A stretch of 64,000 bases of DNA. Origin: an uncultured Candidatus Saccharibacteria bacterium. GTDB taxonomy: Bacteria > Patescibacteriota > Minisyncoccia > Phycocordibacterales > UBA2100. Of this stretch, positions 38,298-61,194 are shown piece by piece. Positions within the stretch are counted from its first letter, which is position 1. Every line of letters begins with the position of its first letter. The stretch spans positions 2,315 through 66,314 of the forward strand of contig CAYNRJ010000001.1 in assembly GCA_964399865.1 (NCBI GenBank), written 5' to 3'. The notes beneath the pieces were generated by a model. It had not been told where the DNA came from. It searched no databases and worked only from the letters and a program-made list of their open reading frames with translations. The position numbers and the translations under genes are program-made.

Positions 38298-38918
38298 ATG
38301 CGGAAAATCGTCATGCATGGCGCCACTGTGTGCGTCATTGGCCTCTCCGGGGTCGCGGCGCTCTTCTATAACATCATGATACTGCAGGATGAGGTGCAGC
38401 CCGTCCTAGCAATGTGGCTGCTCGCTGCGGCTGGGTCTGCGATGAGTTTCGCAACGTATTGGTCAACAGTACGCCAGCGACTGCCCCCGTCTCTGAGAAT
38501 CCTTCAGAACGTGGGCAACGTTGTCGATGTTGTCGCCAATACCTCGGTCCTCGCCACGACCCTGTTCGCGGGATGGGTGCTCGACCACGACATTCGCTTC
38601 GTCTTCTCGAACTTCGAGCACGGCTGCATCGTCGCTGTGGCGATCCTGTTCGTCTTTTGGCGGATCACCAAGTGGCATGTGCTGGCGAACGTGATGGTCC
38701 AGGTTGTGATGACGGTCGCCTACGTGCCGCTCATCGTGTATCTGTGGAATGCGGCCGAGACGAGCGAGCCGGTCGTGCTCTGGGGCATGATCTGGCTTGC
38801 GGCGCTTCTCGCGATGGTGCCCGCCGTCATGTCAGGCAACAAGCTCGCAATGCTCTACAACGGGCGGCGGCTTATCGTGATGTCCGTCGTCATCGTTCTT
38901 ATACTTCGACTCGTCTAG
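38298..38918 (+). CDS. Hypothetical 6-TM membrane protein encoded with markedly high GC / GC3 (atypical for this window).
   Basis: Codons end overwhelmingly in G/C (ctc, gcg, gtc, ggc …); multiple overlapping long ORFs in other frames are a side-effect of the high GC. Confidence 0.5.
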   Translation: MRKIVMHGATVCVIGLSGVAALFYNIMILQDEVQPVLAMWLLAAAGSAMSFATYWSTVRQRLPPSLRILQNVGNVVDVVANTSVLATTLFAGWVLDHDIRFVFSNFEHGCIVAVAILFVFWRITKWHVLANVMVQVVMTVAYVPLIVYLWNAAETSEPVVLWGMIWLAALLAMVPAVMSGNKLAMLYNGRRLIVMSVVIVLILRLV

Positions 38919-48620: not shown

Positions 48621-48725
48621 TGCAAATATACTAGCACAGCACGAAAGAGAGGGCAAATAGAGTAAAAATATGAAAAATCTGGCCGCGGCGGACTCCTCGC
48701 ACTGAGGAAGTCCGCCGCGAAGCCA

Positions 48726-49199
48726 TCAATCGCGCAGCCCGTGGTTCAGGAAGCTCGCACAGATCGTGCCGCCGATCACGCTCGCGAGAGCGATCACCGT
48801 CCATTCAGTGAAGCCGAGCGCTTCGATCCCGCGGAGGTTGATCGTGATGAACGAAATGATTCCTGCCGAGACGACCGAAAACACGCCGACCATGACGAGC
48901 CTCCACGCCGACCATAGTGGGCCCATACCTTTCTTGATGAGGGCTCGGATCTGGATCAAGCCGAACCAGAGGCTCGAAATAGTGGCGGCTCCAGCGCCGA
49001 GCCACCATTGCCAGCTCTCCGCCGGGCTCGCCATTGCAAGAGCGATTGCCGTGACGGCAGCAATCGCGAGAGTGATTTCCTTTGCGGTCATTCTATCACC
49101 TTTGTTGTCGATTGCGACGCCATATCCCAGGCGTCTTGGGTACCCTATTTTCATTACAGCATCTTCAGAGCAAGAGGTCAAGTTGACCCATCTCTTCAT
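48726..49199 (-). CDS. Hypothetical 4-TM membrane protein (probable start at internal Met MTAKEITLAIAAV, about nt 49091); elevated GC relative to its flanks.
   Basis: Hydrophobic helices; G/C-rich codons. Confidence 0.4.
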   Translation of the reverse strand: MKRWVNLTSCSEDAVMKIGYPRRLGYGVAIDNKGDRMTAKEITLAIAAVTAIALAMASPAESWQWWLGAGAATISSLWFGLIQIRALIKKGMGPLWSAWRLVMVGVFSVVSAGIISFITINLRGIEALGFTEWTVIALASVIGGTICASFLNHGLRD

Positions 49200-49274
49200 T
49201 TTCCGTATATTTTCCGAGCAGCGCGCAAGCGCTTATCTACTCGAGATTTATTAAAAGACCTAGCAATTTTTCTT

Positions 49275-49607
49275 ATGAAGAAAACACAGAAAAAAGCCGC
49301 TCCTGTTAACGGATTTAAATTCAGACCAGCCGGCGATCGCATACTTGTGAAGCCACAGGCAGTCGAAGATGAGAAATCTCCGTCCGGAATCATTATTCCT
49401 GACACCGCGCAGAAGGAAAAGCCAGAGCGAGGTGTGGTTGTTGCGGTAGGACCTGGAAAAGTCGGAGACGATAACGAAGTCGTTCCAGTTTCTATAAAAG
49501 TTGGAGACAAAGTTATGTTCTCAAAGTATGGGTACGACGAAGTAACGATCGATGATGTCGAGTATTACATCGTTTCCGAGTCCGGAATCCTCGGCACCTT
49601 CAAATAA
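49275..49607 (+). CDS. groES: Co-chaperonin GroES with a ~14-aa basic N-terminal extension (start at internal Met MKKTQKK).
   Basis: …[14 protein letters not shown]…[28 protein letters not shown]…. Confidence 0.9.
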   Translation: [110 protein letters not shown]

Positions 49608-51281: not shown

Positions 51282-51295
51282 AGGGCCACTCGGCT

Positions 51296-51392
51296 TGCGA
51301 TCAGCATTTCTGCGGTCGCTGTCTGCCGCTGGTGCGGCAGCGCTGCCTCTCGGCCCGCCGGCCTGCGAGACACCGCATAAACGCTGATCGCA
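51296..51392. ncRNA. Copy B of the repeated structured element, immediately 3' of groEL.
   Basis: Closing helix ttgcgatcagcatttctgcgg / ccgcataaacgctgatcgcaa; hairpin cgctg tctg ccgc-tggt-gcgg cagcg; hairpin tctcg ggcc-cgcc-ggcc tg cgaga. Confidence 0.45.
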
Positions 51393-51466
51393 ACCCTCGC
51401 TTTAGGTTGAAAAAATTACATCGTCGTGCCTGCGCAGACCCTCGAAAAACAATTACTCCCTCGCTA

Positions 51467-51515
51467 GAAGTTTTAAAAAGTTGAAGCTCCGGCCGCAGCG
51501 TGCGCCCGGAGCTTC
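51467..51515 (-). terminator. Terminator for the minus-strand gene 51534..51851 (10-bp stem gaagctccgg / ccggagcttc; U-run on the minus side).
   Basis: agttttaaaaagttgaagctccggccgcagcgtgcgcccggagcttc. Confidence 0.55.
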
Positions 51516-51533
51516 GAGTCGCGAAGAGTGTTC

Positions 51534-51851
51534 TCACGACAGGTGACCTGCTTCATCGGCGATGACTCTTCTGGCCATGTCTTCACAGCCCATGTCGAAT
51601 AAGCCGAGATCGTCTGCGTCATAGCGCGAAAGGTACTCTGCCGCTTCAGCGAGCCATTCGAGTGGCGATATCCCGTCCTTTTCGCCGACAGGGATCATTC
51701 GATCTCCACTTTCTGTGCGGAAGACGTACAGGATTTGAATGAGAGGCCTACCCCGCTCCTCCTTGGTAACGAGTGCATCTAATAGTCGGACCGCACCCAC
51801 GCAGCCCGCATCGCTGAACAGTTTTCTTGCCCGCTCTACTTCTGGAGCCAT
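51534..51851 (-). CDS. Hypothetical 105-aa cytoplasmic protein.
   Basis: ORF only. Confidence 0.35.
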   Translation of the reverse strand: MAPEVERARKLFSDAGCVGAVRLLDALVTKEERGRPLIQILYVFRTESGDRMIPVGEKDGISPLEWLAEAAEYLSRYDADDLGLFDMGCEDMARRVIADEAGHLS

Positions 51852-51945
51852 CCGTTTCTCCCGTCGTAACCTTCTCGCAAGAAGGACACTATTTTTACAG
51901 TACTACCTTCATTAAGTAGAGGCAAATATGCTATAATTTCTTTAT

Positions 51946-52506
51946 ATGACAATCATCTATATTCTATTAGGAGTCTTTGTAGTAGTCGCCCTGTGGGTCA
52001 TCTGGGCCTACAACCGATTCGTTTCGCTTACCAACCGTACTGAGGAAGGATGGTCGGATATTGAGGTGCAAATGAAGCGTAGATACGACCTTATTCCGAA
52101 CCTCGTCAACACAGTTAAGGGATACGCTTCTCACGAAGCAGGAACCCTGCAGAAGGTGACAGAGGCTCGTACACAGGCAATGGGAGCACAGACTGTTGCG
52201 CAGCACGCACAGGCAGAAAATATGCTTACTGATGCTCTCAAATCTCTCTTCGCCGTTTCGGAGGCATATCCGGATCTCAAAGCGAATACGAATTTCGTCG
52301 AACTTCAGCGCGAGCTTTCTGACACTGAAAATAAAATTCAGGCAGCACGACGTTTCTACAACTCTGTTGTTATTGAACTTCAGAACGCTCTCGAGCAATT
52401 TCCAACGAACATCGTTGCGGGGATCTTCAAATTCAAGACTCGTGAATTCTTTGAACTCGCAGGAGATGAGCAGGCAGCTCGCCAGCCTGTGAAAGTTAGC
52501 TTCTAG
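51946..52506 (+). CDS. lemA: LemA family protein.
   Basis: N-terminal TM; YNRFVSLTNRTEEGWSDIEVQMKRRYDLIPNLV. Confidence 0.85.
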   Translation: MTIIYILLGVFVVVALWVIWAYNRFVSLTNRTEEGWSDIEVQMKRRYDLIPNLVNTVKGYASHEAGTLQKVTEARTQAMGAQTVAQHAQAENMLTDALKSLFAVSEAYPDLKANTNFVELQRELSDTENKIQAARRFYNSVVIELQNALEQFPTNIVAGIFKFKTREFFELAGDEQAARQPVKVSF

Positions 52507-52511
52507 TCAGA

Positions 52512-53402
52512 ATGGCGTCTCTCTATACACATCAATCCGCAAATATTAGAAAGACCTGGATGCTCATGGGTGGCTTTCTGATTTTGATTATCGGGATCGG
52601 TTGGCTTATCTCACAGATATACGGTAACTCATACATTCTCTACGGAGCTGTCGCATTCTCTCTCTTTATGAATGTGACGGCGTACTGGTTTTCTGACAAG
52701 ATCGCTCTCGCTTCGACAGGAGCGAAACAGGCGGACGAAGCTCAGTATCGTGAGCTGCATCGCATTCTTGAAAACCTTGCCATCACTGCGGGGCTCCCTA
52801 AGCCACGACTTTATGTGGTGAATGATCCAGCACCGAACGCATTTGCAACGGGCAGAAATCCGAAGCATGCGGTTGTCGCAGTAACCACAGGACTACTCGA
52901 GCGACTCGACAGAAGTGAACTTGAGGGCGTTATCGCCCACGAACTTTCTCACATCGGAAATCGCGATATTCTCGTGATGACCGTCGCAGTCGTTCTTGCA
53001 GGAGTGGTGGCCATGATCGCAGATCTGTTTTTACGTATCAGTTTCTTCGGAGGAGGGGATAGAGACAATAAGAATCCGGTCCTCCTTATCGCAGGAATCG
53101 TTGCAATAATCGTTGCGCCGATTGCTGCGCAATTAATACAACTCGCAGTCTCTCGTCGTCGAGAATTCCTCGCAGACGCTTCTGGCGCTCTTCTTACGCG
53201 GTATCCGGATGGTCTTGCTTCCGCACTCCAAAAAATTTCCTCATACGGAGCGCCAATGAAGCGCGCGAATCACGCGACTGCACACCTATTCATATCGAAT
53301 CCGTTCGGTGCGCACGAAGCGGGCCGATTTATCGCAAAGATATTTGCAACGCATCCTCCGATGGAGGATCGCGTCGCAGCTCTCACGGGAATGCGTGTTT
53401 GA
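52512..53402 (+). CDS. htpX: Zinc metalloprotease HtpX (M48).
   Basis: HELSHIGNRD (HExxH), 4 TM. Confidence 0.85.
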   Translation: MASLYTHQSANIRKTWMLMGGFLILIIGIGWLISQIYGNSYILYGAVAFSLFMNVTAYWFSDKIALASTGAKQADEAQYRELHRILENLAITAGLPKPRLYVVNDPAPNAFATGRNPKHAVVAVTTGLLERLDRSELEGVIAHELSHIGNRDILVMTVAVVLAGVVAMIADLFLRISFFGGGDRDNKNPVLLIAGIVAIIVAPIAAQLIQLAVSRRREFLADASGALLTRYPDGLASALQKISSYGAPMKRANHATAHLFISNPFGAHEAGRFIAKIFATHPPMEDRVAALTGMRV

Positions 53403-53814: not shown

Positions 53815-53899
53815 GGAGGGTTCGCATAGTGGTCTAGTGCACACGCTTGGAAAGCGTGCGTGCCGCAAGGCACCGAGAGTTCGAATCTCTCACCCTCCG
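53815..53899 (+). tRNA. tRNA-Ser (anticodon GGA), class II with a long variable arm; no encoded CCA; followed by a T8 run.
   Basis: GGAGGGT-TC-GCA-TAGTGGTCTAG-TGC-A-CACGC-TTGGAAA-GCGTG-CGTGCCGCAAGGCACC-GAGAG-TTCGAAT-CTCTC-ACCCTCC-G folded by hand. Confidence 0.85.
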
Positions 53900-53931
53900 C
53901 TGAGATTTTTTTTAGCGCTCCTGCGCTTTAA

Positions 53932-54335: not shown

Positions 54336-54758
54336 ATGCTCATAGTATCTATGACATCATTTCTTTTTGCCTACCCTTTTTTGGTTCTTACAATAGTCGC
54401 ACTCGATCTCTTGTGGCTTGGAGTTGTGATGAAGGATTTTTATCGAGCTAATCTCGGGCACTTGATGGGAGACAGCGTTGTGTGGGGCGCAGCAATTGCT
54501 TTTTATTTTCTATTTGCCGCAGGTCTATTGTATTTTGCTGTCATGCCTGCAGTCGAAACAGCGTCTCTTGTTCGAGCGATTTCGCTCGGCGCTCTCATAG
54601 GTTTCCTATCATACGCAACGTATGACCTCACTAACCATGCAACACTCCGTGATTGGCCGCTCATCGTAACTATCGTTGATATTGCATGGGGAGCAGTCCT
54701 GTCTGCCACGGCGGCAGGAGTAGGGTTTCTGGCAGTGAAGATACTTGGGTCTTTTTGA
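54336..54758 (+). CDS. DUF2177-like membrane protein.
   Basis: 4 TM; LDLLWLGVVMKDFYRANLGHLM. Confidence 0.45.
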   Translation: MLIVSMTSFLFAYPFLVLTIVALDLLWLGVVMKDFYRANLGHLMGDSVVWGAAIAFYFLFAAGLLYFAVMPAVETASLVRAISLGALIGFLSYATYDLTNHATLRDWPLIVTIVDIAWGAVLSATAAGVGFLAVKILGSF

Positions 54759-54825
54759 CCTCTCGTATCTGGCCTGATGGATACGGAGGTATATACTCTA
54801 GGGACTTATAAGTAATTTTTTATAT

Positions 54826-55248
54826 ATGGATATTGCAATAAATTATTGGGCAGTAATCGCGTGTGGTGTATCAGCGATGGTGCTGGGATTCCTCTGGTAC
54901 GGACCAATATTCGGTAAGCAGTGGAAAGCCCTCATGGGGTATACCGATGAATCCATGAAGGCTATGAAGATGAAGCCGAATACCGCGTATGCCCTTATGG
55001 CTGTCGCTGCGCTTATTGAGGCATATGTGCTTGCTCACATGCTCGGAATTTCTGAGAAAGCCTGGGGAATGATGGATCTTTCTCTTGCGCTTCAGGGAGG
55101 ATTCTGGCTGTGGCTAGGTTTTGTTGCAACGACACAGATTGGTGCAGTGCTCTGGGAAAATAAGTCTTGGAAACTATTCTTTCTTAACGCTGCGTACTCG
55201 CTTATTTCTGTTGAGATAATGGCGACAATTCTTGCGCTTTGGAAATAA
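54826..55248 (+). CDS. DUF1761-like membrane protein.
   Basis: INYWAVIACGVSAMVLGFLWYGPIFGKQWKALMGY. Confidence 0.45.
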   Translation: MDIAINYWAVIACGVSAMVLGFLWYGPIFGKQWKALMGYTDESMKAMKMKPNTAYALMAVAALIEAYVLAHMLGISEKAWGMMDLSLALQGGFWLWLGFVATTQIGAVLWENKSWKLFFLNAAYSLISVEIMATILALWK

Positions 55249-55279
55249 AAACTCGAAGTAGGAAAGTATAAAAAGAAGT

Positions 55280-55332
55280 GGAGGTCGCCGTTGGGCGACC
55301 TCCGTTGTTTGGGATGGCGCGGTTGCGCCATC
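55280..55332. terminator. Two tandem GC hairpins (ggaggtcgcc-gttg-ggcgacctcc and gatggcgc-ggtt-gcgccatc); the first is a bidirectional terminator for the convergent genes.
   Basis: Perfect 10-bp and 8-bp stems; T/A-rich runs on both sides of hairpin 1. Confidence 0.6.
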
Positions 55333-55364
55333 CGCTTGTGCGAACGGGAGCTCCAGACGCGTAG

Positions 55365-55835
55365 CTAGCCGGCCGCGAGGCCGAGGCCACGGGCGCCGCC
55401 GGCACTGCCGCTGTCGCCGAAGGCGAGACGCGCCGACGCATGTGGCGCACTCCGGAGGCCGTCGGCGATGCCGCCGAAGAGCGCGTAGAACGGAGCGACG
55501 AGACCCGCCATGGCGACGATCGCGTAGTCGACCAGCGTCGGATCGAGACGGACGCCCTGGAGCCAGTCATTGACGGCCATGGCGACGTTGTCGGCGAGGT
55601 CGAGCGTGTAGCCGCTGATGGCGAGCGCGAGCATCGCAAACGGATCGGTGCCGCCGGTGTCGTTCAGGGCCGGCATCTCGAGCACGTTCTCGGTGTAGTA
55701 GACCTGGCCGGTGTCGTTGCCGAAGATCATCGGCGACGGTTCGTTCGGAGCCGTGATCGTCACTGCCGACAGGGCGGTCGAACCGGCGAGTACCACAGCC
55801 AGACCTGCGAGGCCCAGCGTTCGTGCGAGTTTCAT
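55365..55835 (-). CDS. Secreted protein (signal peptide) encoded at about 65% GC with extreme GC3; atypical for this genome.
   Basis: MKLARTLGLAGLAVVLAGSTALSAVTITA…; codons ctc/gcc/ggc/acc/gac dominate; the other long ORFs spanning this interval (four of the five in the track) are spurious. Confidence 0.5.
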   Translation of the reverse strand: MKLARTLGLAGLAVVLAGSTALSAVTITAPNEPSPMIFGNDTGQVYYTENVLEMPALNDTGGTDPFAMLALAISGYTLDLADNVAMAVNDWLQGVRLDPTLVDYAIVAMAGLVAPFYALFGGIADGLRSAPHASARLAFGDSGSAGGARGLGLAAG

Positions 55836-56064
55836 CGTAGTCCTCGTTCAAGTTAGACCCTCGACGACCGATTATCGGTCGTAGTAGGGCAGCTCACGTC
55901 CCTCCGTCCGCATGTTTCCATGAGGTGAGCGGCGTGTATCTCAACCGTACTGCTGAGGCCATAATGCGTCAAGAAGAGGTTGGGAGTAGCTACGCGGGTG
56001 CTTTTTGTAGTTGACTTCGGGAATTTATTTGATAAGATGCTTACCTATTTAGTATCTTACATAT

Positions 56065-56499
56065 ATGAAAGATCGCGAACAGAAGGTGGCCGAGCTCATG
56101 GAAGATTTTCATTCCTTGAAGCATTCCATGGCGTTTCAGCCACCCCGAAATACCTCTGTGCCTCATATCACCCCCTCTCAGTGGAGCGCGCTTATGGTCG
56201 TAGGTACTCATATTGGCAGTACGGTAAAAGATGTTGCCGCCTCTTTGTGCATCACAAGCAGTGCTGCCACTCAGCTAGTGGACGGATTGGTAAAAAGCGG
56301 ATATGTTTTGCGCCAGCCAAGCAAGAAAGACCGCCGAACAGTGCAACTCATCCTTCCAAAGAAGACTTCTGTACAAATGGAGAAAATGAAGAGGCAATTT
56401 TTACGCAAATTTGTCGACCTGTTCGACGTACTAGACGACGAGGAGTTTGATCTATACCTGAAACTTAATAAAAAAATTACTCACAAATTTAAGAAATAA
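56065..56499 (+). CDS. MarR-family transcriptional regulator.
   Basis: wHTH: LTPSQWSALMVVGTHIGSTVKDVAASLCITSSAATQLVDGLVKSGYVLRQPSKKDRRTV. Confidence 0.75.
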   Translation: MKDREQKVAELMEDFHSLKHSMAFQPPRNTSVPHITPSQWSALMVVGTHIGSTVKDVAASLCITSSAATQLVDGLVKSGYVLRQPSKKDRRTVQLILPKKTSVQMEKMKRQFLRKFVDLFDVLDDEEFDLYLKLNKKITHKFKK

Positions 56500-56500
56500 T

Positions 56501-58057
56501 ATGAATATACTTCGCAAAATCGTTCAGTTCATAAAGAACCTTCAACTCTGGGCAAAGATTGTGGGAGGAATACTCCTTGCGGTTGTTCTCATCTTGATTG
56601 TGAGCGCCATAACAAAATCTGGCGATGCTACAGATACGCCCCTAAACGTTGCCCATGTGCAAGTCTCAACAGTCGCGAGCTTGTCTGACGAAGCAGGTCC
56701 ACTTCCTGTTACTGGCAAAGTGACCTCTGTAAATAAGGCAAGTATTCTTGCGGTCTCTTCTGGTGAGATCGTAAGTCTCAGACGCTCCCTCGGCGATCGT
56801 GTTGCAGCTGGCGAAGTGATCGCAAGTTTTGAGAATAGTAGCCAGCGAGCTGCCGTGCTCCAAGCCCAGGGTGCATATGAAGGTGCTCTTGCCGCTCTCG
56901 CTAAAGCAAAGGGAAGTCAGAGCGGATCAAATGCTACCGTGTCGGCAAACGCAGCGCTAAAGAGTGCATACGCTACGCTAGACGATGCAGTGCATACGAA
57001 AGCAGATACGCTTTTCACTAACCCTCGCACAAGCATTGCTGACCTCATCCTACTTGTGCCTGATGATCAGCTCGTACGACGTATTGAAAGTCAGAGAGTT
57101 CAGCTCGAACCTCAGCTTCAGAGCGTAAGTACGTTTGGCTCCGATCCATCGAACGCCAATATCGACTCAAACATTACAACTATGACAGACCGTGCCAGAG
57201 TAGTTGAGGCACTTCTCAGTGATCTAGTTTCAGCTCTCACAAAGGCTATTCCGACAACGGACGTGACGTCAACCGAAATTGCGACTTATCAAGCATCAAT
57301 CGGAGCTGCTCGGAGCGCTGTTATAGGAGTCATGTCGTCTTTGTCGGCTGCAAAGAGCGCCTACAACAGTACCGTCTCAGGAACATCATCAAACATAGAG
57401 ACAGCAAATGATATCGCAAGTGCTGAAGCAAATGTAAAAACTGCTCTTGGCGGGTTGAATGCGGCTAACTCAAATCTTGAAAAAACAATAATTCGCGCAC
57501 CAATTTCGGGCACCATCGTAAGTCTCCCGATCACGCGAGGTGGGTACGTGTCTGCATTTACGCAGGTTGCTCAAATATCAAACCCGAGCGCGCTTGAGAT
57601 CGAGGCATACGTGACTTCAGCCGACGCTAAGACGCTCGCAGTCGGCGGTAAAGTTCTGATCGAAGGAGGAGCAAACGGCGTGATCGTGTTTATCGCACCA
57701 GCAATCGATCCATCGACAGGTAAGATCCAAGTGAAGATCGGAATTCCAGGGAGTCAAAGCACTCTCACAGATGGTGATACTGTGACTCTTACGCTTAGTC
57801 GCGCCACCGCAAACAATGCAAAAACTACGGTACAGAAATCGATCAGCATTCCTCTAGCCGCTACAAAAATTACACCGAACGGACCAATAGTGTTTACGGT
57901 GAGTTCGAGCACGCTTGTTTCAAAGCAAATAAAACTAGGCGCGATTCTAGGCGGGAAGGTGACTGTGACCGAAGGTCTTACTCTCGATATGGAGATCGTG
58001 ACTGATGCCAGAGGACTTTCCGATGGGCAAAATGTGATCGTCGATCAAACAGAGTAA
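56501..58057 (+). CDS. Efflux RND periplasmic adaptor (MFP/HlyD-like) with a long coiled-coil hairpin.
   Basis: N-terminal TM; IIRAPISGTIVSLPITRGGYVS lipoyl/beta-barrel motif. Confidence 0.7.
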   Translation: MNILRKIVQFIKNLQLWAKIVGGILLAVVLILIVSAITKSGDATDTPLNVAHVQVSTVASLSDEAGPLPVTGKVTSVNKASILAVSSGEIVSLRRSLGDRVAAGEVIASFENSSQRAAVLQAQGAYEGALAALAKAKGSQSGSNATVSANAALKSAYATLDDAVHTKADTLFTNPRTSIADLILLVPDDQLVRRIESQRVQLEPQLQSVSTFGSDPSNANIDSNITTMTDRARVVEALLSDLVSALTKAIPTTDVTSTEIATYQASIGAARSAVIGVMSSLSAAKSAYNSTVSGTSSNIETANDIASAEANVKTALGGLNAANSNLEKTIIRAPISGTIVSLPITRGGYVSAFTQVAQISNPSALEIEAYVTSADAKTLAVGGKVLIEGGANGVIVFIAPAIDPSTGKIQVKIGIPGSQSTLTDGDTVTLTLSRATANNAKTTVQKSISIPLAATKITPNGPIVFTVSSSTLVSKQIKLGAILGGKVTVTEGLTLDMEIVTDARGLSDGQNVIVDQTE

Positions 58058-58062
58058 ATCGT

Positions 58063-61000
58063 ATGGTGAAATTTTGGAATTTCTTTCTGCTCAGGAAACA
58101 GTTCAGCTATGTGCTCATAGCCGTGCTTCTCATTGCGGGAGCATACTCACTCCTGAATATTCCGAAGGAGAACTTCCCTTCAATAAACATTCCACAAGCT
58201 TTCGTTACAGCGTCTCTTCCAGGGGCATCCGCCGAAGACATGGAGACCTTGGTAACTAATAAACTTGAGGCTCAGATTTCCGGCATCAGCAATATTGACA
58301 CGATCACTTCAACCTCGGGGGAAGGAATAACTCAGATCATCGTGCAGTTCACAGGGAATGCGGACACCAATCAATCCATCCAGGATTTGCGTGATGCGGT
58401 CGCAAGAGCAACTCCGAACCTTCCCTCTGACGTCACGACCCCGCAAGTCATCAAACTCAATTTCAGCGATCAGCCAATAGTAGTCGTCTCGATATCCGGT
58501 AATTTGTCCCCCCTTGAATTTTCTGATCTTGGTCAGGAGATCTCTGATGAGCTTTTAAATATCTCAGGTGTGTCAGAAGTCAGTGTCGCGGGTATTCCGA
58601 AGCGTGAAGTGAACGTTATCGTGCGCAAGGAGCGCCTGGAGCAGTACGGACTACGTATTACCGACGTCATCGGTGCAATTAGTGGAAGTAATGCTGCGCT
58701 GCCTGCGGGCCGCATATCAATAGAAGGGATCAATTACAACGTTAATTTTAAGGGTGGGATTACTGACCCGGATCAACTAAGGGACATAGCAATCTCTACA
58801 CGAAGTGGGGTACCTATATATTTGAGAGACATTGCGGAAATATCGGATGGGTTAGCGGCAGCAAGTACGTACTCTCGCGTTTCCCTCCACGGAAAGCCAA
58901 GTGAACAAGCGATCACGCTTCAGGTCTTAAAACAGTCCACGGGAAGCGTGCAGGGCGTCGCAAATGCAGTAAAGGAGAAAATTGTTGAATTACAGAAAAC
59001 ATCTCTTGCTGGCCTTGATGTCTTCGTCCCGCCTTCAACGGACCAAGGAATACAGGTGAGCGAGCAGCTCGGGTCTCTTACAGAAACTGGTGTCATTACA
59101 GTTATTCTCGTTATCTTGGTCCTATTAGTGACGATCGGATGGCGCGAATCTCTTGTTGCTGCGCTCGCAATCCCTCTCTCATTCCTCATCGCATTCATCG
59201 GACTTCACTTCACAGGGAACACTCTCAACTTCATAAGCCTTTTCGCGCTTATTCTTGCCGTGGGTATTTTGGTGGACTCTGGCATTGTCGTTACGGAAGC
59301 CATACACGCACGCATGAAAGTATTCCCGACTGCAATCGAGGCGGCGTTTGCTGCGCTCCGTGACTACGCATGGCCGCTCGTGGCAGGGACGTTCGCGACG
59401 ATCGCTGTCTTTGCTCCGTTATTCTTCATTTCGGGGATCGTCGGTAAATTTATCGCAGGTATTCCGTACACCCTTATCTTCGTCCTCATTGCATCAATTT
59501 TCGTGGCTCTCGGCATCGTGCCTCTCATTGCGGTCATGTTTACAAAGAGAAATCCAAACCGCATGGAACAAATGCAGGAGGAGTACACTTCGAAAGTAAC
59601 GGTTTGGTATACGGAAAAATTGCGTGCATTCCTCGGGAAGCGACGCTTACAAAAAATATTCCTTACGTCCCTGATCGGCTTACTGTTTGTATCGTTCACG
59701 CTTCCGATGATAGGTCTTGTGTCCGTGACCTTCTTCCCGCAAGACGATTTGGATTTCGTGTATATCAACATCAAAAAAGCAGAAGGCACTGTTCTTGCTC
59801 AGACTGACCTGACTGTACGCGCTATCGAGGAAATACTCTACCAGGATGAGGATATAGAGTCGTTCCAAACGACTGTTGGGCAAAGCTCGATGCTTACGGG
59901 AGAAGGCTCATCCGGTAGCAATCAAGCGAACATAACAATAAATCTTCCAGAGGATCGTAAGAAAACGAGTACGGAAGTCTCAAATGACATCCGAGAAAAG
60001 CTTGCGGTAATTACTGACGCGGACATTCAGGTGCTGCAGCCAAGCAATGGACCCCCTGCGGGAGCGCCTATCCAGATCCAATTCGTTGGAGACAATACCG
60101 ACGAATTGATTCTAGCAACAGAAAAGGGTAAACAACTTCTTTCGTCACTCCCTAATGTACACACGATAACTTCAAGTACAGAAAAGAATGGCATCGAATT
60201 CAATCTCACGATCGATCGTGCAAAGGCAACTGCGCTCGGACTTAATACACAGCTCATCGCTCAGACCCTGCGTGCTGCCGTAAACGGCACAAAAGCGACA
60301 AGCATCACACAGACGAATCAAAACATCGATGTGGTCGTCAAGATGAATCTCAACCCTGCATACACTGATCCTTCGAATACTGCTGAAGCGACAATAGATA
60401 GTATTAAAAATCTCACAATTCAGGGGCCATCCGGGCCGGTACTACTTGGTTCAATTTTGAAGGACAGCCTAGATATGAGTAATGCGACAGTTTCTCACAA
60501 GGATAAAAAGCGCATTGAGACCATCTCTGCATATCCAAATGACACGACCACAGCGACCGCAGTTGTTGCTGAGTTCCAGAAACGATCAGGTGAGCTCAAC
60601 CTACCTTCTAGCGTCACGATCTCGTATGGCGGAGAGAGCGAGAGTATCAATCAGTCGTTTACGGAGATGTTCATCGCCCTCATTGCTGGATTAGTTCTCA
60701 TGTTCGTTATCCTCGTCATATCGTTTAACTCCATCCGCTACACATTGCAATTGTTATCCATCGTCCCGCTCGCACTCATCGGGGTCCTATGGGGGCTCGC
60801 AGTTACGGGACAATCACTCTCGTTCACATCGCTACTCGGTGTCATTGGTCTTGGCGGCGTTATAATTAACCACGCCATCATTCTCATGGATTCCCTCATT
60901 AAGAATCTGCACGCTGAGCCGGATAAAGATCTCTTGGATATTGTCGTTGAATCAAGCGAAACAAGATTCCGACCGATCGTGCTTACAACGATCGCAACGG

Positions 61001-61194
61001 TGATTGGCATGATCCCGCTTGCGATATCTAATCCTACCTGGGGACCATTCGCGTTCACGGTCATGTTCGGTCTGGCGTTCGCAATTTGTCTCACACTTGT
61101 ACTCGTCCCGATGATGTTCTATCGCTCAGTGCAGAAGCAGCGGGCTAAGATTGCAAAAAAGACACTCGCTGGTGCAACAAGTGCGACGAATTAA
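58063..61194 (+). CDS. RND-superfamily efflux permease (AcrB/MMPL-like, 12 TM, two large periplasmic loops).
   Basis: 1043 aa; characteristic TM1, large loop, TM2-6 duplicated; GILVDSGIVVTEAIHARM motif. Confidence 0.85.
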   Translation: MVKFWNFFLLRKQFSYVLIAVLLIAGAYSLLNIPKENFPSINIPQAFVTASLPGASAEDMETLVTNKLEAQISGISNIDTITSTSGEGITQIIVQFTGNADTNQSIQDLRDAVARATPNLPSDVTTPQVIKLNFSDQPIVVVSISGNLSPLEFSDLGQEISDELLNISGVSEVSVAGIPKREVNVIVRKERLEQYGLRITDVIGAISGSNAALPAGRISIEGINYNVNFKGGITDPDQLRDIAISTRSGVPIYLRDIAEISDGLAAASTYSRVSLHGKPSEQAITLQVLKQSTGSVQGVANAVKEKIVELQKTSLAGLDVFVPPSTDQGIQVSEQLGSLTETGVITVILVILVLLVTIGWRESLVAALAIPLSFLIAFIGLHFTGNTLNFISLFALILAVGILVDSGIVVTEAIHARMKVFPTAIEAAFAALRDYAWPLVAGTFATIAVFAPLFFISGIVGKFIAGIPYTLIFVLIASIFVALGIVPLIAVMFTKRNPNRMEQMQEEYTSKVTVWYTEKLRAFLGKRRLQKIFLTSLIGLLFVSFTLPMIGLVSVTFFPQDDLDFVYINIKKAEGTVLAQTDLTVRAIEEILYQDEDIESFQTTVGQSSMLTGEGSSGSNQANITINLPEDRKKTSTEVSNDIREKLAVITDADIQVLQPSNGPPAGAPIQIQFVGDNTDELILATEKGKQLLSSLPNVHTITSSTEKNGIEFNLTIDRAKATALGLNTQLIAQTLRAAVNGTKATSITQTNQNIDVVVKMNLNPAYTDPSNTAEATIDSIKNLTIQGPSGPVLLGSILKDSLDMSNATVSHKDKKRIETISAYPNDTTTATAVVAEFQKRSGELNLPSSVTISYGGESESINQSFTEMFIALIAGLVLMFVILVISFNSIRYTLQLLSIVPLALIGVLWGLAVTGQSLSFTSLLGVIGLGGVIINHAIILMDSLIKNLHAEPDKDLLDIVVESSETRFRPIVLTTIATVIGMIPLAISNPTWGPFAFTVMFGLAFAICLTLVLVPMMFYRSVQKQRAKIAKKTLAGATSATN

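Follow-up and report, generated by a model that had tools for sequence, protein, structure and literature searches.

The block at about 55276-56005 of the window, the 64-kb stretch of DNA analysed here (64,000 nucleotides), is probably a horizontally acquired single-gene islet, which came from a source of about 63-68% GC, has hardly been ameliorated and forms a complete unit on the minus strand. By the compositional definition, which takes in GC, GC3, codon usage, tetranucleotide frequencies and sharp boundaries, it is a horizontal acquisition. We infer the transfer itself from composition alone; the coding frame, the junctions, the structural elements and the foreign composition were established directly. 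The positions of all features in the window are given in Table 1.

Table 1. Features of the high-GC islet and of the surrounding genes, with positions in the window.
Feature	Position	Strand	Basis or remark
LemA	51946-52506	+	
HtpX	52512-53402	+	
tRNA-Ser	53815-53900	+	
DUF2177	54336-54758	+	
DUF1761	54826-55248	+	
Inverted-repeat left arm, AAATAAAAACTCGAAGT, 17 nt	55243-55259		overlaps the DUF1761 stop codon; host-like AT-rich DNA
High-GC islet, whole	~55276-56005	none (gene on -)	GC 0.649, ~0.73 kb
GC-rich hairpin 1, perfect 10-bp stem (8 GC pairs), 4-nt loop	55280..55303		minus-strand tail ACTTCTTTTT
GC-rich hairpin 2, perfect 9-bp stem, 4-nt loop	55312..55333		first hairpin downstream of the ORF
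Orphan ORF, 156 aa, ATG to TAG	55365..55835	-	GC3 periodicity
Predicted transmembrane helix, codons 101-124	55464..55535	-	Kyte-Doolittle 1.97
Acidic extracytoplasmic segment (predicted), codons 27-95	55551..55757	-	weak repeat-domain similarity
Signal-peptide-like N-terminus, codons 1-24: MKLAR, hydrophobic core, ALSA	55764..55835	-	hydropathy and sequence inspection
Shine-Dalgarno GAGGA, 5 nt before ATG	55841..55845	-	sequence
Perfect 9-1-9 palindrome, ACGACCGAT-T-ATCGGTCGT	55864-55882	none	between candidate promoter and Shine-Dalgarno
Candidate promoter, TTGACG (55972-55967), 17 nt, TACGGT (55949-55944)	55944..55972	-	by eye
Inverted-repeat right arm, ACTTCGGGAATTTATTT, 17 nt	56014-56030		overlaps the promoter-like site of MarR at 56011-56038 (-35 and spacer)
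MarR	56065-56499	+	
Membrane-fusion protein (MFP)	56501-58057	+	
RND pump	58063-61194	+	
Phosphoribosyltransferase and pyrimidine genes	61151 onward	+	

Compositional analysis

The minus-strand ORF 55365-55835 has a GC content of 0.684 (GC1/GC2/GC3 0.69/0.51/0.85), against a mean GC of 0.486 (sd 0.032) and a mean GC3 of 0.489 (sd 0.073) in the other 52 scored ORFs of the window. An earlier note on this DNA had described a high-GC gene with codons ending in G/C, as these values bear out, and its figure of about 65% GC fits the whole block 55275-55975 (0.653; the ORF itself 0.684). The flanking genes for which it had reported mixed third positions were host-typical in GC and GC3 (GroEL, 0.505 and 0.507; HtpX, 0.506 and 0.481; RND gene, 0.481 and 0.518), and the GC3 of the islet's neighbours lay at 0.41-0.52.

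Whole-window GC is 49.0%. Sliding windows of 500 bp (mean GC 0.490, sd 0.033) showed one extreme value, 0.684, in the 500 bp that begin at 55301 (about 5.9 sd above the mean). The segment 55301-56000 was also the top outlier in tetranucleotide distance from the window profile (z = 7.4, the window maximum). The GC-normalised dinucleotide signature of the islet was no outlier, at a length of 700 bp over which this measure is noisy.

For a null distribution of GC3, synonymous codons were redrawn from host usage with the amino acids held fixed, in 20,000 draws. The redrawn 156-aa ORF had a GC3 of 0.479 (sd 0.039, maximum 0.65) against the observed 0.845 (z = 9.4), and a total GC of 0.556 against the observed value of about 0.684-0.688. 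Since amino-acid composition alone gives only 55.6% GC, the richness of the protein in Ala, Gly and Leu does not explain the bias of the ORF. The non-coding parts of the islet are GC-rich as well (0.652 at 55276-55364 and 0.553 at 55836-56005), and its 700-bp flanks have a GC of 0.461 and 0.439. The foreign composition thus extends to synonymous sites and to the non-coding flanks within the islet, and protein composition cannot account for it. The left edge is sharp, with GC going from 0.32 to 0.64 within 50 bp; on the right, GC comes down to 0.26-0.30 by 56001-56075, over about 100 bp. Together, the GC3 and tetranucleotide z values support the proposal, already made from the sequence, that the gene was acquired horizontally, and fairly recently, from a higher-GC genome.

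Milder GC3 outliers also occur elsewhere in the window, e.g. at 38298-38918 (GC3 0.79).

Verification of the junctions in independent assemblies

In the protein collection, the exact 156-aa sequence had a single entry, from a Logan contig (run SRR13076588) which matches window positions 54798-57563 with 100% identity. Four further Logan contigs were located by exact look-up of both flanking proteins. All five contigs (SRR13076587, SRR13076588, SRR14271366, SRR14271372 and SRR14271373) agree with the window at 100% identity; the full islet with both junctions is covered by three of them, and the junction on the MarR side by a fourth. A 613,030-bp NCBI contig records the flanking genes together with a plus-strand ORF inside the islet. 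All islet copies recovered were identical, with no polymorphism.

The extreme contrast in composition would also be expected of an assembly chimera, or of a contaminant fragment joined into the contig. This explanation is most improbable, as both junctions are crossed at 100% identity in three de Bruijn assemblies made independently from separate runs, the one on the MarR side is crossed in a fourth, the same arrangement stands on the 613-kb contig and the flanks are colinear on both sides. One Logan assembly (SRR14271373) is interrupted within the islet, at 55353-55376, which could speak for a chimera, but this sole break is internal and does not fall at an islet border. A chimeric join, which the earlier note had held to be the less likely reading, is very unlikely and effectively excluded.

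Genomic neighbourhood and relatives of the host

The host is an ultra-small, Kaiserbacteria-like Patescibacterium. In a GroEL search, the best named relatives were Candidatus Kaiserbacteria with 83-84% identity, and other metagenomic relatives reached 85-89%. On the contigs of the GroEL relatives, colinearity with the window stretches from about 42.5 kb until HtpX ends (53402), and different genes follow; in the five closest long GroEL contigs, synteny was lost after HtpX or earlier. No empty DUF1761-MarR site was found in these relatives, whose synteny with the window ends at HtpX. A scan of genome contigs with DUF1761 had a best match of 49% identity, and a scan of metagenome contigs with the MFP a best match of 49% identity over the full length; the islet gene was at neither place.

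None of the annotated neighbours of the islet codes for an integrase, a transposase or a phage protein. Two genes of native composition separate the islet from the nearest tRNA gene, tRNA-Ser, at a distance of about 1.4 kb. The islet has neither the mobility genes nor the tRNA gene at the point of integration that characterise a mobile genomic island.

Relatives with an 85% identical GroEL have a GC of 57-58% and gene GC3 values of 0.62-0.79, which means that base composition changed quickly within the clade. The islet might then be a vertical relic of a higher-GC ancestor that was spared the drift to 49% GC, or a gene whose bias is intrinsic to it. These relatives share the islet's preference for CTC over CTG, and the milder GC3 outliers in the window would fit such a history too. 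We nevertheless regard it as an unlikely one. A GC3 of 0.85 lies above that of every gene measured in the relatives, and mutation pressure hits all synonymous sites and would not exempt one gene and its non-coding flanks among neighbours with a GC3 of 0.41-0.52. The edges, moreover, are sharp to about 50 bp, and no orthologue was found in the relatives or in the databases searched. Homologues of similar GC in related low-GC genomes, which the earlier note had named as the finding that would speak against acquisition, were looked for and none was found in the databases searched.

Gene model and transcription unit

Horizontal acquisition of a single gene remains the preferred reading, and the islet carries the parts of one gene. 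In the minus frame, GC3 stays at 0.80-1.00 from codon 13 to codon 156, and this frame is therefore coding along its whole length. The ORF is preceded by a Shine-Dalgarno motif and, further upstream, by a candidate promoter (TTGACG-17 nt-TACGGT) that falls under the promoter-scan threshold and whose -10 hexamer fits in 3 of 6 positions.

The palindrome noted earlier upstream of the gene start is present at 55864-55882. These 19 nt are unique in the window (0.03 chance matches expected); in a transcript they would pair into a stem of 8 bp, within a leader that is moderately structured (z = -2.3), and they may act either as an operator-like site or as a stem-loop of the 5' UTR. A further palindrome, which is AT-rich, lies at 56054-56073. 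Downstream of the gene, the two tandem perfect hairpins of the same description were located at 55280-55303 and 55312-55333, and the RNA fold of the islet tail that contains them had a z of -5.2. On the minus strand, the hairpin at 55303-55280 leads into the T-run tail ACTTCTTTTT and was picked up as an intrinsic terminator, and it has the features of a Rho-independent terminator in that orientation. On the plus strand its tail is GTTGTTTGG, and it could also terminate DUF1761. With these predicted elements, the islet looks like a complete, self-contained monocistronic unit with a weak promoter-like site. A search of Rfam over 55150-56150 at E <= 1 returned nothing.

The NCBI record and four of the five Logan contigs carry a different call, a plus-strand ORF of 138 aa at 55440-55856. 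Its selection by automatic gene callers in most assemblies and its direction, which is that of the neighbours, would favour it as the real gene. It is very improbable that it is, or that the block is non-coding. In the plus frame the GC-richest base is at codon position 1, not 3, as is characteristic of a shadow ORF that lies antisense to a high-GC gene. The plus-strand product is rich in Arg, Asp, Glu, His and Val and matches no family, and there is no Shine-Dalgarno motif at a usable distance, whereas the minus ORF has a Shine-Dalgarno motif, a signal sequence, a transmembrane helix and a terminator in the right orientation, and is alone in showing any similarity in the databases. The public annotation of the islet gene is probably on the wrong strand.

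Predicted protein

Hydropathy analysis of the 156-aa protein revealed two hydrophobic segments, at residues 6-28 (Kyte-Doolittle 1.5-1.97) and 101-124. To judge from the sequence, the N-terminus fits the pattern of a Sec signal peptide, and a cleaved peptide and an uncleaved anchor would both be compatible with it. The protein has no Cys and is therefore not a lipoprotein. The stretch of roughly 75 residues between the hydrophobic segments is acidic (over the whole mature protein, Asp+Glu number 13 and Lys+Arg 4), and residue 124 is followed by a 32-aa tail with 3 Arg and 1 His.

The earlier note had taken the product for a secreted protein with a signal peptide. Its signal-like N-terminal segment was recovered; the second hydrophobic segment, at 101-124, changes the rest of the claim. 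On the predicted topology the protein is probably exported and anchored in the membrane by its C-terminal helix, not freely secreted, and its most likely role would be that of a small cell-surface or envelope protein. A single-sequence AlphaFold model was uninformative (pLDDT 42.6).

Homology searches

Searches with the 156-aa protein in Pfam, NCBIfam, PHROGs, PADLOC and PDB sequences gave no significant match, and in a search of 5.8 billion protein clusters it matched itself only. The plasmid searches (blastn and tblastn) and the phage search (blastn) with the islet found nothing, nor did the IMG/VR protein scan or the palindrome scan.

An exhaustive phmmer search of 1.84 billion representatives returned, besides the protein itself, two multi-repeat proteins with E = 4.6e-10 and 4.7e-8, values that are inflated by the summing of near-identical repeats. 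Single-pair BLASTP of the islet protein against the repeat proteins gave E values of 1e-5 to 1e-7, which are valid for one comparison only. The alignment pairs residues 27-95 with the first half of a repeat of about 115 aa (DTGQ...SGY.D.AD.VA..ND.LQG), with an hhalign probability of 74%. In this first half the repeat proteins (P0002-P0013) and the islet protein are alike (DTGQ..., SGYxxDxADxVAxxxNDxLQG), although several invariant positions of the repeat domain are substituted in the islet protein, and where the repeat has its second half the islet protein runs on into the transmembrane helix. The ORF was also considered as a frameshifted fragment of the repeat domain and rejected as such, since no remnant of the second half was found in any frame of the islet and GC3 periodicity is confined to one frame.

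The repeat family is rare and consists of ten clusters, all of hypothetical secreted proteins, with one cluster from a Gammaproteobacteria MAG; in one member, the repeat is accompanied by an M10-like zincin motif and an InlB B-repeat. The modelled repeat domain (pLDDT 73) matches carbohydrate-binding beta-sandwiches of the CBM35/CBM6 type with a TM of 0.57-0.68. The islet protein may be truly homologous to this domain, and we give the presence and the absence of such a relationship about the same weight. With its half-length alignment, it is not a full-length member of the CBM-like repeat family. As the partial match might suggest, it may have been derived from a CBM-like beta-sandwich repeat and function as a binding module.

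Flanking inverted repeat

The islet is bracketed by two 17-nt arms (55243-55259 and 56014-56030) that are complementary at 14 of 17 positions. This was the only such pair within 3 mismatches in the 64-kb window, where 0.25 were expected. A match of 14/17 was reached by shuffled flanks in 5-21 of 2000 trials and by 1 of 640 control flank pairs taken from other parts of the window, which corresponds to a post hoc P of about 0.003-0.01. The two arms could be the terminal repeats that end a cassette or the halves of an older intergenic hairpin into which the insertion fell, or their match could be a post hoc coincidence.

If the arms were terminal inverted repeats, the 788-bp unit 55243-56030 would be a non-autonomous mobile element of a MITE-like or cassette-like kind. 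The exact bracketing of the islet and the rarity of the pair, both in the window and in the shuffled and control flanks, favour this reading, but we consider it improbable. The repeat was spotted post hoc, and its arms lie in host-like AT-rich DNA, the left one over the stop codon of DUF1761 and the right one over the -35 box of MarR. Neither arm adjoins a visible target-site duplication, the 64-kb window contains the unit just once, and the neighbourhood has no transposase or integrase gene. The same picture would result if the insertion had split an older intergenic hairpin.

Integron cassettes and MITE-like elements resemble the islet in that they are small and have a single ORF of foreign composition with structured repeats at the ends; unlike them, the islet has no nearby integrase or transposase, lacks both a recognisable attC and a target-site duplication, and occurs just once in the window. 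When it was assessed as an integron cassette, no tyrosine recombinase was found among the annotated neighbours, and the hairpins, inspected by eye, were without separated R''/R' core sites. A 10-nt perfect inverted repeat (55358-55367 and 55987-55996) was rejected as being at chance level, with about 0.5 expected per kb. A wider proposal is that the islet is a minimal mobile cassette that would shuttle orphan surface-protein genes among Patescibacteria, or from a high-GC host to its episymbiont, with a half-CBM ectodomain serving for partner attachment; we hold this to be quite improbable.

Source and fate of the acquired gene

For the acquisition of a single gene from a higher-GC genome, the preferred reading, codon usage offers some indication of the source. 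The codon log-likelihood of the ORF was -189.9 with host codon usage, -150.9 with a Kaiserbacteria-like table of 57% GC and -146.0 with one of 64% GC, i.e. 39-44 units better under the high-GC tables than under that of the host. Among its Leu codons, CTC occurs 16 times and CTG 5 times, and the counts in the Kaiserbacteria-like relative are 229:64. Under the table of the CTG-preferring 64% GC contig, the islet's CTC:CTG usage is improbable (P = 7e-6). No homologue that would identify a donor was found in the searches of 5.8 billion clusters and 1.84 billion representatives.

In 125 Patescibacteria genomes from an aquifer, most of the detected transfers were between Patescibacteria (PMC12455944). 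Given these transfers and the Kaiserbacteria-like codon preference, a higher-GC donor from the same phylum is plausible, and the gene may have come from such a member of the candidate phylum rather than from a distant high-GC phylum. The published transfers likewise have a Patescibacterium as the recipient and comprise individual genes as well as islands. They were detected through homologues in donor and recipient, whereas the islet was called from its composition alone.

The course of events can be pictured as follows. A single-gene block would have passed from a high-GC genome (about 63-68%) into the chromosome of the Kaiserbacteria-like Patescibacterium. The gene would be transcribed there from the weak promoter-like site, with the 19-nt palindrome in its leader, and the 156-codon ORF would be translated from the GAGGA Shine-Dalgarno motif; the transcript would stop at the second of the two GC-rich hairpins downstream, the intrinsic terminator. 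The product would be exported by way of its N-terminal signal sequence, so placing the acidic segment of about 75 residues outside the cell, and the C-terminal transmembrane helix with its positively charged cytoplasmic tail would anchor it.

In the amelioration framework of Lawrence and Ochman, horizontally acquired ORFan genes or 'genomic islets' are compositionally atypical. The islet resembles such atypical ORFan islets in being a single gene with deviant GC, GC3, codon usage and oligonucleotides, in its sharp edges and its own regulatory flanks, and in having no detectable homologues. Bacterial ORFans are usually AT-richer than their host, and the islet gene differs from them in being much GC-richer. 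It also departs from known genomic islets in that there are no mobility genes near it, the tRNA-Ser gene is about 1.4 kb off and no donor was found.

Significance

The islet is ordinary in kind, a compositionally foreign single-gene acquisition of a familiar type. With an orphan product and no donor identified, it opens no new question by itself; the phenomenon is a known one. For annotation, it is an instance in which gene callers trained on a host of 49% GC choose the antisense shadow ORF within a high-GC insert, and the public record therefore probably carries the wrong protein. For the organism, it is a clean case in which a streamlined genome of the candidate phyla radiation has probably taken up a single gene that is barely ameliorated. 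Such genomes carry little spare DNA, and a foreign envelope protein that has been kept in one of them is therefore a reasonable candidate for a part in cell-cell interaction.

Synteny and flanking genes

The gene order RNase J, SBP, SecG, GroES, GroEL, LemA and HtpX was common to the window and to the contigs of its nearest relatives, picked by GroEL (L039-L041 and L044). Synteny with these contigs ended directly after HtpX, and the window differs from 53403 onward. The segment comprising tRNA-Ser, DUF2177, DUF1761, the high-GC islet and MarR-MFP-RND has no counterpart at this place in the same contigs, and is therefore a variable region of the clade. Within the GroEL-LemA interval, a gene of 1253 aa or 107 aa carried by relatives is missing from the window, so the long gap there may be a decayed remnant.

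Relatives of the DUF1761 protein (42-51% identical) were found in contigs binned as archaea (Woesearchaeota and Methanosarcinales; L006, L014, L015, L017, L018) and also in many Patescibacteria, a distribution which suggests cross-domain spread or binning errors. On the other side of the islet, a promoter-like motif lies just upstream of a palindrome that overlaps the start codon of MarR and is a candidate MarR autoregulatory operator.

Features of the window (nt positions)
Feature	Position	Strand	Properties
Hydrophobic ORF, multi-pass	38298-38918	+	206 aa; GC 0.588; GC3 0.79; tetranucleotide z ~3.5
Unusually long gap	48621-49289		GC raised, ~0.55-0.57
Unusually long gap	51282-51945		GC raised, ~0.55-0.57
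Islet gene	55365-55835	-	156 aa
Overlapping ORF in islet	55440-55856	+	138 aa
Promoter-like motif	56011-56038		TTGACT-16-TAAGAT
AT-rich palindrome	56054-56073		ATCTTACATATAT / ATATATGAAAGAT; arms 92% complementary

Gene calling and assembly of the islet

The plus-strand ORF was called, and the minus-strand islet gene passed over, in the NCBI record (613-kb contig) and in four of the five Logan assemblies. The plus-strand ORF is a shadow of the minus-strand gene; because the sequences are identical, the differing strand calls are a gene-caller effect of a high-GC insert in a lower-GC genome.

The assembly of run SRR14271373 has a break close to the stop codon, within the islet and away from either of its borders, where contigs L020 and L024 overlap by 24 nt (55353-55376). 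Low coverage or a local variant could be the cause.

Base composition

Besides the islet, the hydrophobic ORF was the second, milder compositional outlier of the window. Pfam and PADLOC searches gave no matches for its product, and records of the exact protein came from Logan contigs only, being absent from NCBI annotation. The two long gaps hold only overlapping ORFs without a family.

L039-L041, with 85% identical GroEL, had a GC of 0.573-0.579 versus 0.490 in the window (~8-9 GC points and ~20 GC3 points away), and shared with it an unusual leucine preference, CTC over CTG. The GC and GC3 differences amount to a fast shift in composition inside Kaiserbacteria-like lineages.
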